Shown here: positions 307-2,149 of the stretch, in pieces
Layout: the number at the start of each line of letters is the position of its first letter
How positions within the stretch are numbered: the stretch's first letter is position 1
Virus record (IMG/VR): IMGVR_UViG_2778261572_000003
Span: 1 to 4,395 of that record
Length of the DNA stretch: 4,395 nt
Source: a virus
Lineage: Duplodnaviria > Heunggongvirae > Uroviricota > Caudoviricetes
Direction: 5' to 3' (one strand)
The notes under the pieces: model-generated
The model's input: only the letters and a program-made list of their open reading frames with translations
What the model was told of the DNA's origin: nothing
Database searches by the model: none
Position numbers and translations under genes: made by a program

Positions 307-663
307 TTACTCGAGAGGAAATTGGTTATGGATACAATCAAGTTTTCTTGCCCAGAATGTGGTGGCGAAGTCTTTGACACATCCTTTAAGCCGCAGGGCT
401 CTGACAGTTTCGCGGGAGCCATCTGCAAAAATTGTGGTCACCTTGTAACTGAAGATTAGTCCTCGCAGTTCGATGACGAAATCGTTGACAATATCTTCGG
501 TGCACTCACCAGAGACTTTCTGAAATAAAGACGCATACCGCTTAGTTACCGCTCTGATAACTCTTACCTGTCCGGCAATGGCGCTGATGTCAATATAAAG
601 CGCCATTGCTGCTTCTTTGCCGATCCCGTGATGCCTTCCATTCTGATGTTTGACTTCGCCCAC
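307..663 (-). CDS. Hypothetical protein, 118 aa from GTG 661-663 (alternative ATG at 604-606 gives 99 aa); coding status uncertain
   Basis: Only long ORF in 300-800. GTG start is preceded by GAGG 8 nt upstream. It lies downstream of a candidate repressor-controlled leftward promoter at 746-774. Against it: 8 of its 10 Arg codons are rare (AGA/AGG/CGG/CGA), and its C-terminal third is exactly antisense, in codon register, to a zinc-ribbon ORF on the plus strand. The neighbouring 17..235 gene also uses rare Arg codons, so codon usage is not decisive. Confidence 0.4.
   Translation of the reverse strand: MGEVKHQNGRHHGIGKEAAMALYIDISAIAGQVRVIRAVTKRYASLFQKVSGECTEDIVNDFVIELRGLIFSYKVTTIFADGSRETVRALRLKGCVKDFATTFWARKLDCIHNQFPLE
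328..459 (+). CDS. Candidate small zinc-ribbon protein, 43 aa (MDTIKFSCPECGGEVFDTSFKPQGSDSFAGAICKNCGHLVTED), nested antisense in the 307..663 ORF
   Basis: ATG at 328 with GAGAGGAA (313-320) upstream, TAG at 457-459. Two CxxC knuckles (C8/C11 and C33/C36) are spaced as in a zinc ribbon. Codon choice is E. coli-like (GAA, GGT, GGC, CCG, CAG, ATC, AAA). No convincing sigma70 promoter was found in 236-327, and it lies inside a putative leftward operon, so it remains a candidate only. Confidence 0.3.
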   Translation: MDTIKFSCPECGGEVFDTSFKPQGSDSFAGAICKNCGHLVTED

Positions 664-745
664 TGAGAAATCCTCTGTTTCCCCTTAACGCCGGGGTGGC
701 GGAACTTTAGCCTGACAACGATGCGGTTCGTTGTTGATGGAATGA

Positions 746-797
746 ATGGTAAAACTATTGGTTTTATTGGTCAATAGGTAATGGAACATAAAGTTTT
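746..797 (-). promoter_or_regulatory. Putative repressor-controlled leftward (pL-like) promoter with two operator copies
   Basis: On the minus strand: -35 TTGACC (complement of 769-774), 17-nt spacer, -10 TACCAT (complement of 746-751). The spacer contains AAAACTATTGGTTTT (751-765), 14/15 identical to the operator at 1293-1307. A second, weaker AAC-N5-GTTTT site is at 785-797. Tandem TATTGGT repeats sit at 755-761 and 764-770. Confidence 0.45.
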
Positions 798-809
798 ATT
801 TGTGAGGAT

Positions 810-837
810 AAAAAAAGCGCCAAGGAGGCGCTTTTTT
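810..837. terminator. Bidirectional rho-independent terminator ending the repressor transcript
   Basis: A7 (810-816), stem GCGCC (817-821), loop AAGGA, stem GGCGC (827-831), T6 (832-837). It starts 9 nt beyond the repressor stop (846-848). The perfect symmetry makes it usable on both strands. Confidence 0.8.
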
Positions 838-845
838 CATGTAAC

Positions 846-1256
846 TTATTGTTTTTGAATATCATTGATTATGTCGTATACATCGTTTTTTAGAAGATCC
901 ATTTCATGAAGAATGCTTTTTGTGTGCATGATTAGTCTCAGCTTTTCCGTTTCTGGCAACTGATTAAAAAGGGACAATAGCGCCTTTTCTTTGTCGTCAA
1001 GCTGGATTAGTGGTGGTGCATCTTCTTCCTTTGAATGTTCATTTAGCGGCATAAAAAACCAATGTTCTGGTTTTCCTGTTACTGCGGCAAGTCTTTTTAA
1101 TCTTTCTCCGCTGGCAATGGTTTCTCCTGTTGCCCACTTACGCACAGCGGTATGGGACAGCATAACCTTTTTAGCCAGACCGGCTAACGACCAGCCATGT
1201 TCGCTCATTGCTTGCCGAACTCTCTCAGCAAATATTGGATGGTTTATTTTACTCAT
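846..1256 (-). CDS. Prophage repressor, XRE-family HTH, DicA/RacR-like short type without a peptidase S24 domain
   Basis: 136 aa. An HTH is visible at about residues 22-42 (SLAGLAKKVMLSHTAVRKWATGE). The C-terminal segment LLSLFNQLPETEKL resembles the DicA-type C-terminus as I recall it. It faces the Cro-like gene across an operator-rich intergenic region. There is no SD, and a TATACT -10 lies about 7 nt upstream of the ATG, consistent with a leaderless mRNA. Confidence 0.85.
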   Translation of the reverse strand: MSKINHPIFAERVRQAMSEHGWSLAGLAKKVMLSHTAVRKWATGETIASGERLKRLAAVTGKPEHWFFMPLNEHSKEEDAPPLIQLDDKEKALLSLFNQLPETEKLRLIMHTKSILHEMDLLKNDVYDIINDIQKQ

Positions 1257-1368
1257 TTTTTAAGTATACAACCAAAGGTTTCACCAATCAGCAAAACTAT
1301 AGGTTTTGTGTTGAAACTTATAGTTTTTGATGGTAGCGTAGGTGAAATTAATAGTACTGGTGGAAAGT
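1257..1368. promoter_or_regulatory. Divergent promoter/operator region (pRM-like leftward, pR-like rightward) with three related operator sites
   Basis: Operators of form AAAAC-N5-GTTTT: AAAACTATAGGTTTT (1293-1307), AAACTTATAGTTTTT (1314-1328), and a degenerate copy ACAACCAAAGGTTTC (1268-1282, 11/15). Centres are 21-25 bp apart. Rightward candidate: -35 TTGAAA (1311-1316), 17-bp spacer, extended -10 TGgTAGCGT (1331-1339). Leftward candidate: -10 TATACT (complement of 1263-1268) with a weak -35. Confidence 0.65.
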
Positions 1369-1644
1369 ATGAGTAATCAAATTCACGATAAGATCTCTAA
1401 AAAAATGTCGAAAACTGACATTGGCAAACACTTTGGCATTAGCTCCCAGGCCGTAGGCAAGTGGTTCATTAAAGGCAAGGTTCCTGCTGAACGCGTGTCG
1501 TCACTCTGTGCATTACTGAATTGGGAAATTACTCCCCACGAACTTCGCCCTGACATTTATCCCAACCCAACAGATGGACTACCTTGTGGAAATAAGTGTA
1601 TGTCGAATGAATCACTGGCGGTGAACAATGATATTCACTCCTGA
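1369..1644 (+). CDS. Cro-like / YdaS-family HTH protein, 91 aa from ATG 1369
   Basis: HTH (IGKHFGISSQAVGKWF) followed by the HELRPD motif I associate with the YdaS/Cro-like family. ATG 1369 is preceded by GGTGG (1359-1363). The ORF-track start at 1342 (GTG) lies upstream of the predicted transcription start, so 1369 is preferred. An ATG at 1405 is also possible but has no SD. Stop TGA at 1642-1644 overlaps the next gene. Confidence 0.75.
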   Translation: MSNQIHDKISKKMSKTDIGKHFGISSQAVGKWFIKGKVPAERVSSLCALLNWEITPHELRPDIYPNPTDGLPCGNKCMSNESLAVNNDIHS

Positions 1645-2149
1645 GCAGGCTCGCGAGGCTCTGGATGCCTGGGTATGCCGACCAGGAATGACGCAGGAGC
1701 AGGCGACGATATTAATCACGGAAGCATTCTGGGCTCTGAAAGAACGCCCGAACATCGATGTTCAACGCGTCACGTTTGATGATGGCGCGGTTGATCAACG
1801 GGCGCTGGGCGTTAACCGGGTGAAGATATTCGAACGCTGGAAAGCGATCGACACCAGGGATAAGCGGGAAAAATTCACGGCGTTGATTCCGGCAATCATG
1901 GAGGCTATCCGGATAAGTGATTTCAGGTTGTATTGTGAAATTACTGATGGAAAAAGCATTACGTACATGCTCGCCGGGTTAAATAAAGAATATGGCGATG
2001 TGGTGGAGTCCGGTCTGCTTTTGGCAGATCCCGCTGTTGTGGAGCGCGAGACTGACGAGCTTATAGAAAAAGCTATTGCTTTCAAGCATGCGTATCGTCA
2101 GCAATATCAACAAAAAGCCGGATGGAATTATGAGTCTTCTTTTTGCTGA
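1628..2149 (+). CDS. YdaT-family protein (CII-position regulator; annotated in databases as putative toxin YdaT), 173 aa
   Basis: Sits second in the rightward operon with a 17-nt overlap onto the Cro-like gene. The segment KIFERWKAIDTRDKREKFTALIPAIMEAI matches my recollection of the conserved YdaT core. The family call is from memory, not a search. Confidence 0.7.
   Translation: MIFTPEQAREALDAWVCRPGMTQEQATILITEAFWALKERPNIDVQRVTFDDGAVDQRALGVNRVKIFERWKAIDTRDKREKFTALIPAIMEAIRISDFRLYCEITDGKSITYMLAGLNKEYGDVVESGLLLADPAVVERETDELIEKAIAFKHAYRQQYQQKAGWNYESSFC

Follow-up and report, generated by a model that had tools for sequence, protein, structure and literature searches.

A right-operator region with three sites between divergent promoters in a probable Gifsy-2/Qin/Rac-type prophage of E. 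coli

A spacer of 112 bp (positions 1257–1368) separates a leftward HTH repressor gene from a rightward YdaS-type cro gene in the 4395-bp stretch of phage DNA analyzed here (the window). The spacer raises the question of whether its short inverted repeats and the promoters facing away from each other form a genetic switch, and to which kind such a switch would belong. The first-pass annotation had described a compact arrangement of three operator sites between back-to-back promoters, with a repressor mRNA that is probably leaderless. The three-site divergent switch is confirmed, and the spacer is very probably the right operator (OR) of a Gifsy-2/Qin/Rac-type E. coli lambdoid prophage immunity region. 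Switches of this sort have already been described; the novelty lies in a new immunity variant, without a new mechanism. The sequence anatomy, its non-randomness, its conservation and the family membership of its proteins are demonstrated below, and the coordinates of all features are collected in Table 1.

Table 1. Predicted regulatory features and genes of the immunity region in the window.
Feature	Position	Strand	Placement or detail	Evidence
pL-like promoter	746–774	-	TTGACC (774–769), 17 nt, TACCAT (751–746)	promoter scan
OL1-like operator	751–765		AAAAC-TATTG-GTTTT; pL spacer, abutting -10	top matrix score, 21.6 bits
OL2-like operator	783–797		GGAAC-ATAAA-GTTTT; upstream of pL -35	matrix, 17.4 bits
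Bidirectional intrinsic terminator	810–837		stem GCGCC/GGCGC (817–831), A7 and T6 runs flanking	folding
Possible extra operator-like site	841–855		GTAAC-TTATT-GTTTT; overlaps repressor stop codon	matrix, 10.3 bits only
Repressor gene, GtgR/DicA class	846–1256	-	136 aa	Pfam, homology, AF2 model
pRM-like -10	1263–1268	-	TATACT	sequence; conserved in relatives
OR3-like operator	1268–1282 (centre 1275)		ACAAC-CAAAG-GTTTC; -19 from repressor ATG	motif search; matrix, 20.4 bits
pRM-like -35, weak	1286–1291	-	CTGATT (3/6); 17 nt from -10	sequence
OR2-like operator	1293–1307 (centre 1300)		AAAAC-TATAG-GTTTT; -44 from predicted pRM start	matrix, 17.2 bits
pR-like promoter	1311–1339	+	TTGAAA (1311–1316), 17 nt, TAGCGT (1334–1339)	sequence, alignment
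OR1-like operator	1313–1327 (centre 1320)		GAAAC-TTATA-GTTTT; pR -35 and spacer	matrix, 17.7 bits
cro analogue, YdaS family	1369–1644	+	91 aa	Pfam YdaS_toxin, E = 5.7e-10; PHROG 35
cII analogue, YdaT family	1628–2149	+		Pfam YdaT_toxin; PHROG 163 CII-like activator, E = 2.4e-40

The surroundings are those of an integrated prophage, which in the matching prophage of E. coli E423 include int, xis, recE, dicB, Q and lysis genes. The gene order is that of a lambdoid immunity region, with the divergent repressor and cro genes followed by YdaT/CII-like, O-like and DnaC-like genes. Other lambdoid features are also present: a single dyad operator occurs in several copies that overlap both divergent promoters, and a second operator cluster lies on the leftward early promoter. 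The immunity region is carried by E. coli E423, SLK172, Z1323CEC0019, JB2 and Z1323CEC0005. A BLAST search against phage genomes found it in none of the sequenced phages and matched only the cro/ydaT junction. A search of Rfam at a permissive threshold returned nothing relevant apart from two sub-threshold chance matches.

All three proposed sites were found in the spacer where the first-pass annotation had placed them. OR3 occupies the pRM spacer and abuts the pRM -10. OR2 is separated by 1 bp from the pRM -35 and by 3 bp from the pR -35 downstream of it, and the overlap of OR1 with the pR -35 (TTGrAAC) is kept in relatives. We scored the sites with a family matrix built from the sites of relatives only, with those of the window left out. 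The five main sites of the window score 17–22 bits, while the best background position reaches 5.2. OR3 is among the highest-scoring sites and is the most conserved. The rightward pair had been ranked as the strongest and the site on the leftward promoter as the weakest. The position of the pair stands, with OR1 on the pR -35 and spacer and OR2 just upstream, but the ranking does not, as the matrix puts OR3 (20.4 bits) above OR1 (17.7) and OR2 (17.2). OR3 scores at the level of OL1, which fits poorly with a lambda-style repressor hierarchy in which OR3 is filled last. AAAAC/GTTTT was rejected as a family consensus, since AAC(Y)...(R)GTT is all that relatives keep, with variation at positions -7 and -6.

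The relatives that were read comprise Gifsy-2, 17 genomic loci and 33 distinct IMG/VR upstream regions. Loci of the same specificity group share one layout, with OR3 at -19 or -18 from the repressor ATG in every locus, OR2 at -44 or -43, and OR1 at -64 to -68. This layout, together with two OL sites, is found in Gifsy-2, in Citrobacter, Yersinia, Enterobacter, Kluyvera and Leclercia prophages, and in IMG/VR contigs. The distance between OR3 and OR2 is constant at 25 bp, whereas that between OR2 and OR1 varies (20, 23 or 24 bp). The OR1-OR2 spacing is 20 bp here and 23–24 bp in all relatives, and thus cooperativity may differ. OR2 is degenerate in Gifsy-2 and in one other locus (L006). Loci whose repressor has a different recognition helix carry other repeats at the same positions (ACAAG-N5-CTTGT in L012; CTTGAA/TTCAAG in L010 and L014), as would be expected of heteroimmune operators.

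Both pR and pRM fell below 9/12 in a consensus promoter scan and were not called; the support for them is comparative, since the key bases of their -35 and -10 elements are invariant in the alignment. In the pRM -10, the invariant columns are the T, A, A and T positions. Conservation in the pRM -35, which is poor in all relatives, is limited to CA (TG on the minus strand). For pR, they are the T, T and G of the -35 and the T, A and final T of the -10. The -10 of pR matches at only 3/6 positions, the spacer ends in TG (1331–1332), and relatives have TATTCT, TAATCT, TACTTT, TATGCT or TATCCT at the equivalent place. Transcription from pR is predicted to start near 1346, giving cro a leader of about 23 nt. 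An SD-like GGTGGA (1359–1364) precedes the cro ATG, unlike the SD-less start of the repressor gene.

The leftward -10 had been placed about 7 nt from a repressor ATG lacking a Shine-Dalgarno sequence, and this geometry is seen in the sequence: the hexamer TATACT (1268 to 1263) is followed by 6 nt and then by the ATG at 1256, so that the A is the seventh base after the hexamer. No G-rich Shine-Dalgarno sequence precedes this ATG. Judged from this spacing, the A of the AUG (1256) is the predicted first base of the repressor transcript, which would be leaderless. A TAnnnT hexamer lies 5–7 nt before the repressor ATG in 18/18 genomic loci read and 5–6 nt before it in all 33 distinct IMG/VR upstream regions, which are also free of SD-like motifs between -16 and -5. 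The start codon is ATG here and in each of the 14 further loci listed. The spacing and the absence of a Shine-Dalgarno sequence are therefore kept across the relatives read, consistent with the suggestion of a probably leaderless message. The architecture as a whole (divergent promoters, three common operators, an SD-less repressor start and a cro gene with a normal Shine-Dalgarno sequence) is backed by comparative evidence.

The short repressor had been described as unrelated, which proved incorrect. Over 99% of its length, the protein shows 63% identity to Gifsy-2 GtgR; identity to K-12 DicA is 30% (E = 2e-11), and the two have a common C-terminal LLxLFNxLPExE motif. Its size, its N-terminal HTH without an S24 domain and its homology to characterized members place it in the GtgR/GfoR/DicA/RacR class. 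Most homologues are 133–142 aa long with 99% query coverage, and some are named DicA by their sources. Repressors of the GtgR/DicA class are short (about 135–150 aa) and non-cleavable, and are inactivated by small antirepressors; for the GtgR/GfoR/DicA/RacR class, the antirepressor genes lie beyond the immunity region and are often LexA-controlled. Pfam matches are confined to HTH_3 and HTH_31, with none to Peptidase_S24. The AF2 model consists of an HTH domain (residues 7–68, with helix 1 at 7–20), a disordered linker and a helical hairpin (88–135), leaving the C-terminal part all-helical. The only Ala-Gly of the protein is inside the HTH (residues 26–27), and the combination of S24 domain, Ser/Lys dyad and linker Ala-Gly typical of LexA/cI-type autocleavable repressors is lacking. 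The N-terminal domain of the model superposes on P22 c2 at 0.9 Å over 59 residues; over the full length, the closest structure is that of SinR bound to its antagonist SinI. A sequence search of the PDB gave a spurious lipoprotein match only and was less informative than the fold search.

Left of the repressor gene lies the OL/pL half of the circuit (746–797), which was absent from the first-pass annotation. The pL-like promoter is the sole promoter called by the consensus scan between 700 and 1700, and its transcript would start near 739. It is the counterpart of K-12 dicBp (TTGACC-17-TAATCT), with the same -35, the same spacer and a homologous leader, and relatives have TTTACA-17-TAGTCT or TTGACA-17-TAATGT at the equivalent place. 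The geometry of OL1 on pL equals that of OR3 on pRM, and OL1 is conserved in relatives. OL2 is 32 bp from OL1; in relatives, the second site is 30–33 bp from the first. The additional site at 841–855 and its flank are identical to OR1 and its flank at 18/20 positions and are missing from relatives, which makes it a tentative operator candidate only. The terminator (-19 kcal/mol, z = -5.7), with hairpins at the same place in relatives, was found by folding and missed by a pattern-based terminator scan. The conserved pL leader has no convincing consensus structure (RNAalifold; single-sequence fold z = -0.8), and hence a nut- or put-like RNA is not claimed there.

From these features, we infer how repressor and Cro binding, transcription starts, site hierarchy, self-activation and the route of induction may fit together. 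The repressor and the YdaS-type Cro, which are divergently transcribed, would both bind three 15-bp dyads with the core AAC(Y)-N3-(R)GTT. Repressor at OR1, on the -35 and spacer of pR, and at OR2 would keep cro, the cII analogue and the replication genes off. At OL1 and OL2, it would shut off the pL-like promoter and the leftward operon, which in the E423 prophage contains dicB and recE and continues through to int. Cro, or excess repressor, at OR3 would turn off the repressor's own promoter. Activation of pRM by repressor bound at OR2 is plausible, given a good -10, a poor -35 and an OR2 adjoining that -35. The activating operator of lambda is centred at -42 from the pRM start. OR2 is at -44 from the predicted start, not at the position found in lambda, and an activating contact is thus not assured. 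The repressor mRNA would be leaderless and monocistronic, about 445 nt long, and would end at the terminator. Since the repressor has no S24 cleavage domain, an antirepressor is expected for induction, most likely a small one whose gene is located elsewhere, as is the case for Qin and the Gifsy phages. Induction would probably not follow the lambda logic. No LexA box (CTGT-N8-ACAG) was found in the 25 kb of the matching E423 prophage that were searched.

Three alternative explanations would remove all or part of this picture. Palindromes might arise by chance in intergenic DNA as AT-rich as this spacer (32% G+C), and the looser pattern AAAC-N5-GTTT (one mismatch allowed) shows no more than a mild excess in the window (7 matches vs 2.69 expected; 4/200 shuffles reach 7). 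However, the core AAC-N5-GTT occurs 6 times vs 1.19 expected, a count reached by none of 200 whole-window shuffles, and all six matches lie within the two regulatory regions flanking the repressor gene. At least three core matches are obtained in the spacer in 4/20,000 local dinucleotide shuffles and in the OL region in 1/20,000. The sites also hold fixed positions across diverged relatives despite varying bases between them. Chance, which has practically no probability left, is refuted by these motif statistics and by conservation. It is very unlikely, too, that translation of the repressor starts internally, at the ATG at 1208 (M17), the start given by RefSeq for the identical region of E. 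coli E423 (PGAP CDS at window 846–1208, 120 aa, WP_001360157.1). A GAGAGAG lies upstream of that codon, and its use would imply an mRNA leader of at least 48 nt with a weak GAGAG Shine-Dalgarno sequence, and hence a message that is not leaderless. However, residues 1–16 are conserved in 20 homologues, and the invariance of F9 and R12 among them argues for a start at 1256. Residue 17 is L or Q in several homologues, the Pfam HTH_3 match already begins at residue 14, and a start at M17 would truncate helix 1 of the model. The length and coverage of most homologues and the -10/ATG geometry, conserved in every locus read, point the same way. On this comparative basis, the RefSeq start is almost certainly wrong, with translation beginning at the ATG at 1256, and a systematic RefSeq start-codon error is flagged for this protein. 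The names YdaS_toxin and YdaT_toxin in Pfam, and 'toxin YdaT family protein' in RefSeq for the second rightward product, could instead suggest a toxin-antitoxin-like module, in which the HTH protein is the regulator and the repeats are an autoregulatory operator, with no lysis-lysogeny switch. This, we believe, is equally improbable. In CP-933P, YdaS acts as Cro and YdaT acts like CII, and the two form no toxin-antitoxin pair (PMC8630535). PHROGs labels the products as a transcriptional repressor (PHROG 35) and a CII-like activator. The genes are located between the pL operon and O-like/DnaC-like replication genes in an integrated prophage, and the Cro protein is 60% identical to the Gifsy-2 Cro analogue.

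A weightier alternative keeps the lambda-like layout with another logic. The repressor would truly target just one or two of the sites, much as DicA does at Oc; OR3 would serve chiefly for Cro binding or for simple negative autoregulation, and the repressor promoter would be constitutive or driven by CII (YdaT), with no self-activation. We regard this as possible, although not the favoured interpretation. In vivo, DicA bound only Oc, one of its three predicted operators, and not Om or Oa (PMC3441716), and YdaT provides an alternative positive control of paaR2 (PMC8630535). The conservation and high score of OR3, the degenerate OR2 of Gifsy-2 and L006, and the centre of OR2 at -44 are in agreement with such a logic. 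On the other hand, the region protected by PaaR2 (about 78 bp) takes in both promoters, and several shifted complexes form with this protein (PMC8630535). The OR3-OR2 distance is fixed while OR2-OR1 drifts, suggesting that OR2 is constrained relative to pRM, and the poor pRM -35 in all relatives is as expected of an activated promoter.

The closest known system to the proposed three-operator switch is the immunity region of Salmonella Gifsy-2 (and LT2 Gifsy-1), with GtgR and a Cro analogue. GtgR binds a Gifsy-2 right-operator fragment, from which the antirepressor GftA releases it (Lemire et al. 2011, PMC3121763). Gifsy-2 and the window share the operator core AAC-N5-GTT. In Gifsy-2, OR3 is at -19 and OR1 at -68, and OR2, at -44, has lost one half-site, whereas it is a full dyad here. 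Both have a -10 hexamer before the ATG (TAAAAT, at 6 nt, in Gifsy-2) and two OL sites on the leftward promoter, followed by the same pL leader. The two differ in host genus and in the OR1-OR2 distance (24 bp in Gifsy-2, 20 bp here). The cII analogue is YdaT-type here and a 'Lambda gpCII analog' by annotation in the Gifsy-2 record, which describes it as similar to phage ST64T and ST104 C1. The literature searched contained no nucleotide-level GtgR operators and nothing joining 'leaderless' and Gifsy with regard to gtgR.

Lambda shares with the window three operators common to two divergent promoters, a second operator set at pL, a repressor mRNA starting at the AUG (predicted here), a Cro antagonist and a cII-type gene downstream. 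The superposition on P22 c2 indicates that the N-terminal DNA-binding domains have folds of the same class. However, the window repressor has a helical hairpin as its C-terminal part in place of an S24 autocleavage domain, and RecA-stimulated self-cleavage is not expected. The operator sites are 15 bp long in the window and 17 bp in lambda; OR1 lies on the pR -35 here and covers the pR -10 in lambda; and OL is about 0.5 kb from OR here and 2.3 kb from it in lambda.

The PaaR2/YdaS/YdaT switch of CP-933P from E. coli O157:H7 has been footprinted (Jurenas et al. 2021, PMC8630535). There, too, a short HTH repressor gene faces ydaS-ydaT, the two being about 100 bp apart. 5' RACE located PRM and PR and, together with N-terminal sequencing, identified the paaR2 mRNA as leaderless; the footprints of PaaR2 and YdaS span PR/PRM, and both proteins repress PL, which has OL sites; expression from the switch is bistable (PMC8630535). 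The spacer there contains four repeats, which unlike those of the window are 18-bp palindromes (half-site consensus GTTTAGTAA). paaR2 is the first gene of an operon that also encodes the ParE2 toxin and PaaA2 antitoxin, whereas the repressor gene of the window is predicted to be monocistronic and to end at a terminator. Qin resembles the window in its short DicA-class repressor and in three predicted operators between dicA and dicC, with more at dicBp. It differs in its operator (Oc, TTGTTAGTCATAACTAACAA) and in being a cryptic remnant. DicA represses dicC and is an activator of its own transcription (PMC3441716); it is countered by the antirepressor Rem (PMC10448788). By dRNA-seq, neither the dicA mRNA nor that of racR in Rac has a leader (PMC4681348).

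Published precedents thus exist, in close or distant relatives, for short repressors, for YdaS as Cro and YdaT as CII, for leaderless repressor mRNAs and for the OR/OL architecture. The practical value of the present analysis is modest: it provides a nucleotide-level operator model for the GtgR (Gifsy-2) clade, whose members are prophage repressors under antirepressor control and are widespread in Enterobacteriaceae. The model consists of RAAC(Y)-N3-(R)GTT(Y) sites, with OR3, OR2 and OR1 at about -19, -44 and -64 to -68, plus two OL sites. A predicted promoter positioned for a start at the AUG is a fixed feature across the whole clade.

A Gifsy-2 operator core combined with a nearly identical recognition helix (LSHTAVRKWATG vs LSHTSVRKWASG) makes cross-immunity, or cross-induction by antirepressors, with Salmonella Gifsy-2-type phages possible. 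We consider it doubtful that such cross-talk occurs together with an effect of the 20-bp spacing and a looping contact at 841–855. In that case, the extra OR1-like site might add a contact to an OL-OR loop. The 20-bp OR1-OR2 spacing would put adjacent dimers on nearly the same face of the DNA, and could alter cooperativity and the sharpness of the switch. The 20-bp layout is seen only in the immunity type of this prophage.

The window is early regulatory DNA from a lambdoid prophage of E. coli. Positions 800–1700 match, at 100% identity, a prophage inserted beside yccA in E. coli E423. Among 5426 complete E. coli genomes just 5 have the immunity region, and a search of phage genomes found it in no sequenced phage. 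Left of about position 700, the window departs from the E423 prophage although 800–1700 matches perfectly; the background of the immunity module is therefore mosaic. The interval 1257–1368 is exactly the spacer between the repressor and cro start codons.

Features of the immunity region and flanking genes
Feature	Position	Strand	Sequence or remark
OL1	751–765		AAAAC-TATTG-GTTTT, within the pL spacer
OL2	783–797		32 bp from OL1
pL (predicted leftward promoter beyond the repressor gene)	774–746	−	TTGACC (774–769), 17 nt, TACCAT (751–746)
Bidirectional intrinsic terminator	810–837		stem GCGCC-AAGGA-GGCGC (817–831) between A7 and T6 runs
HTH_3 repressor gene	846–1256	−	leftward
−10 of pRM (predicted repressor promoter)	1268–1263	−	TATACT
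OR3	1268–1282		ACAAC-CAAAG-GTTTC, 15-bp dyad
OR2	1293–1307		AAAAC-TATAG-GTTTT, 15-bp dyad
OR1	1313–1327		GAAAC-TTATA-GTTTT, 15-bp dyad
pR (predicted cro promoter)	1311–1339	+	TTGAAA (1311–1316), 17 nt ending in TG, TAGCGT (1334–1339)
YdaS-family cro analogue	1369–1644	+	rightward
YdaT/CII-like gene	1628–2149	+	rightward
O-like gene, DnaC/IstB-like loader, DUF977 gene		+	after the YdaT/CII-like gene

All three operator-like sites reported by the first-pass annotation are present in the spacer, and share the core AAC-N5-GTT. This core occurs six times in the 4395-bp window (1.19 expected; none of 200 shuffles attained six), with all six copies in two non-coding regions on either side of the repressor gene. 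When the AT-rich spacer (32% G+C) was shuffled by itself, three or more cores arose in 4 of 20,000 trials; the same local test of the left-hand region gave 1 in 20,000. On a weight matrix trained solely on sites from relatives, the five main sites of the window score 17.2–21.6 bits, compared to 5.2 bits for the best background position. The site on the leftward promoter, OR3, had been considered the weakest, but at 20.4 bits it is not the lowest on this matrix. A further copy, GTAACTTATTGTTTT at 841–855, overlaps the repressor stop codon and, with its flank, matches OR1 plus flank (1313–1332) at 18 of 20 positions. It scores 10.3 bits, is absent from relatives, and could be an extra operator or a chance occurrence. 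At 1342–1360, downstream of the pR −10 and ahead of the cro Shine-Dalgarno (SD) sequence, there is a weak operator-like GAAAT-TAATA-GTACT (centre 1351, 4.3 bits), which is not conserved in relatives.

Repressor homologues of 133–142 residues are numerous in Enterobacteriaceae prophages. We read loci from species genomes (L002–L015), two close relatives with 76–79% identity (L018–L020) and Gifsy-2 (L017), together with 80 IMG/VR contigs. All loci whose repressor has the recognition helix LSHT(A/S)V..W carry AAC-N5-GTT sites at the same distances from the repressor ATG (OR3, −19/−18; OR2, −44/−43; OR1, −64 to −68), as well as two more sites, 30–33 bp apart, placed on either side of a leftward promoter's −35 just past the repressor terminator. 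Relatives with other recognition helices have other repeats at the same positions: ACAAG-N5-CTTGT in L012, and CTTGAA/TTCAAG in L010 and L014. A change of repeat with the helix, at unchanged positions, is what heteroimmune operators would show. The OR3-OR2 distance is constant at 25 bp throughout the clade, whereas OR2-OR1 is 20, 23 or 24 bp, the 20-bp spacing being unique to the immunity type of the window; this fits a fixed placement of OR2 relative to pRM and of OR1 relative to pR. A useful by-product is a nucleotide-level operator model for the clade of GtgR, the Gifsy-2 repressor.

A consensus promoter scan called pL only; pR and pRM were missed because each matches fewer than 9 of 12 consensus positions, and their assignment therefore rests on comparison with relatives. 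The proposal of back-to-back promoters around the sites is supported, as the hexamers could be located and their key bases are invariant among relatives. An alignment of eight spacers has as its invariant columns the start codon, the leftward −10 (T-A-x-A-x-T), the operator cores, and the rightward −35 (TTG.AAC) and −10 (T-A-x-x-x-T). An SD-like GGTGGA lies a few bases 5' of the cro ATG. The same eight bases, ATGAGTAA, open both divergent genes (1249–1261 and 1364–1376), so that the spacer is bracketed by a 13-nt inverted repeat, probably a coincidence.

The predicted left operator and promoter (746–797) lie outside the region first annotated, and their arrangement is conserved in relatives. 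OL1 shares its last base with the pL −10, and OR3 on the repressor promoter has identical geometry. The terminator between the repressor gene and pL, not detected by a pattern scan, is strong by folding (−19 kcal/mol, z = −5.7), and the repressor RNA is therefore predicted to be monocistronic, about 445 nt long. Both pL and the ~70-nt leader after it (664–740, minus strand; CATCAACAACG..CGTTGTCAGG..GTTCCGCC..GGCGTTAAGGGG) have homologues in Qin, namely dicBp and the ydfA leader. This leader is kept in all relatives, regardless of immunity type or first downstream gene; K-12 Qin has it behind dicBp, and several unannotated phage genomes contain it too. It has no Rfam family, and neither single-sequence nor alignment folding gave a convincing structure.

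The repressor had been described as short and unrelated. It is indeed short, but by sequence it belongs to the GtgR/DicA class: it is 63% identical to GtgR and distantly related to K-12 DicA (30% identity, E = 2e-11), while the Cro analogue is 60% identical to that of Gifsy-2. The modelled repressor consists of a five-helix HTH domain, which superposes on P22 c2 at 0.9 Å, a disordered linker (69–87) and a helical hairpin (88–135); its best full-length structural match is SinR in complex with SinI. Lemire et al. defined this class: its short repressors are not cleaved upon induction, and are released from DNA by small antirepressors that bind them (PMC3121763); DicA with its antirepressor Rem widens it (PMC10448788).

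RefSeq (PGAP) starts the identical E423 gene at M17 (window 1208; 120 residues, WP_001360157.1). This start is almost certainly wrong, as it drops conserved residues and HTH helix 1. Residues 1–16 are conserved among homologues, with F9 and R12 invariant; the AlphaFold model places helix 1 at residues 7–20, and the Pfam HTH_3 match begins at residue 14. The ATG at 1256 is thus the supported start, a useful correction in itself. Its A is the seventh base after TATACT (followed by TAAAAA on the minus strand) and no purine-rich SD precedes it, in agreement with the −10 about 7 nt from an ATG without SD noted at first pass. The geometry is clade-wide, which is also of use: a TAnnnT hexamer lies 5–7 nt 5' of the ATG in 18 of 18 genomic loci and 5–6 nt 5' in all 33 distinct IMG/VR upstream regions, which uniformly lack an SD-like motif, and the start codon is ATG in 15 of 15 loci tabulated. 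In relatives the arrangement has been confirmed by experiment: dRNA-seq in K-12 detected just five leaderless mRNAs, among them dicA, racR and ymfK (PMC4681348), and evidence from 5' RACE, protein N-terminal sequencing and mass spectrometry shows paaR2 of CP-933P to be leaderless too (PMC8630535). From sequence and these analogies, we infer that the repressor mRNA is leaderless.

The region has the structural features of a lambdoid immunity region, and its predicted working resembles lambda OR and OL. The sites and divergent-promoter layout of the suggested lambda OR logic hold; a cI/LexA-type system is ruled out because the S24 peptidase domain was tested for (Pfam) and is absent. Repressor dimers at OR1 and OR2 would shut pR, and those at OL1 and OL2 would shut pL, while OR3, in the repressor-promoter spacer, would allow shut-off through Cro or surplus repressor. 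The poor pRM −35, with OR2 1 bp off, could permit self-activation, as for DicA, which is reported to activate its own transcription (PMC3441716). In CP-933P, low PaaR2 affects PRM933P oppositely to its repression of PL933P (PMC8630535); read as activation, this suggests that PaaR2 may be self-activating like DicA. Weak points are the OR2 centre lying at −44 relative to the presumed start of pRM, the high matrix score of OR3, the exceptional 20-bp OR2-OR1 spacing, and the finding that DicA bound just one of three predicted operators in vivo (PMC3441716). Induction would probably proceed via an antirepressor; none came up in 25 kb of the E423 prophage, where a search for LexA boxes gave no hit. 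Of the systems described so far, the element comes nearest to the Gifsy-2 immunity region and to the PaaR2/YdaS/YdaT switch; it is an immunity variant not described before, of a type of switch already known.

A 43-residue zinc-ribbon-like ORF (CxxC...CxxC; 328–459, plus strand) with weak, sub-threshold Pfam matches lies antisense within the first ORF of the pL operon (307–663, minus strand). The PHROG 21318 match of the latter begins only at residue 20, and its true start is therefore probably the ATG at 606.
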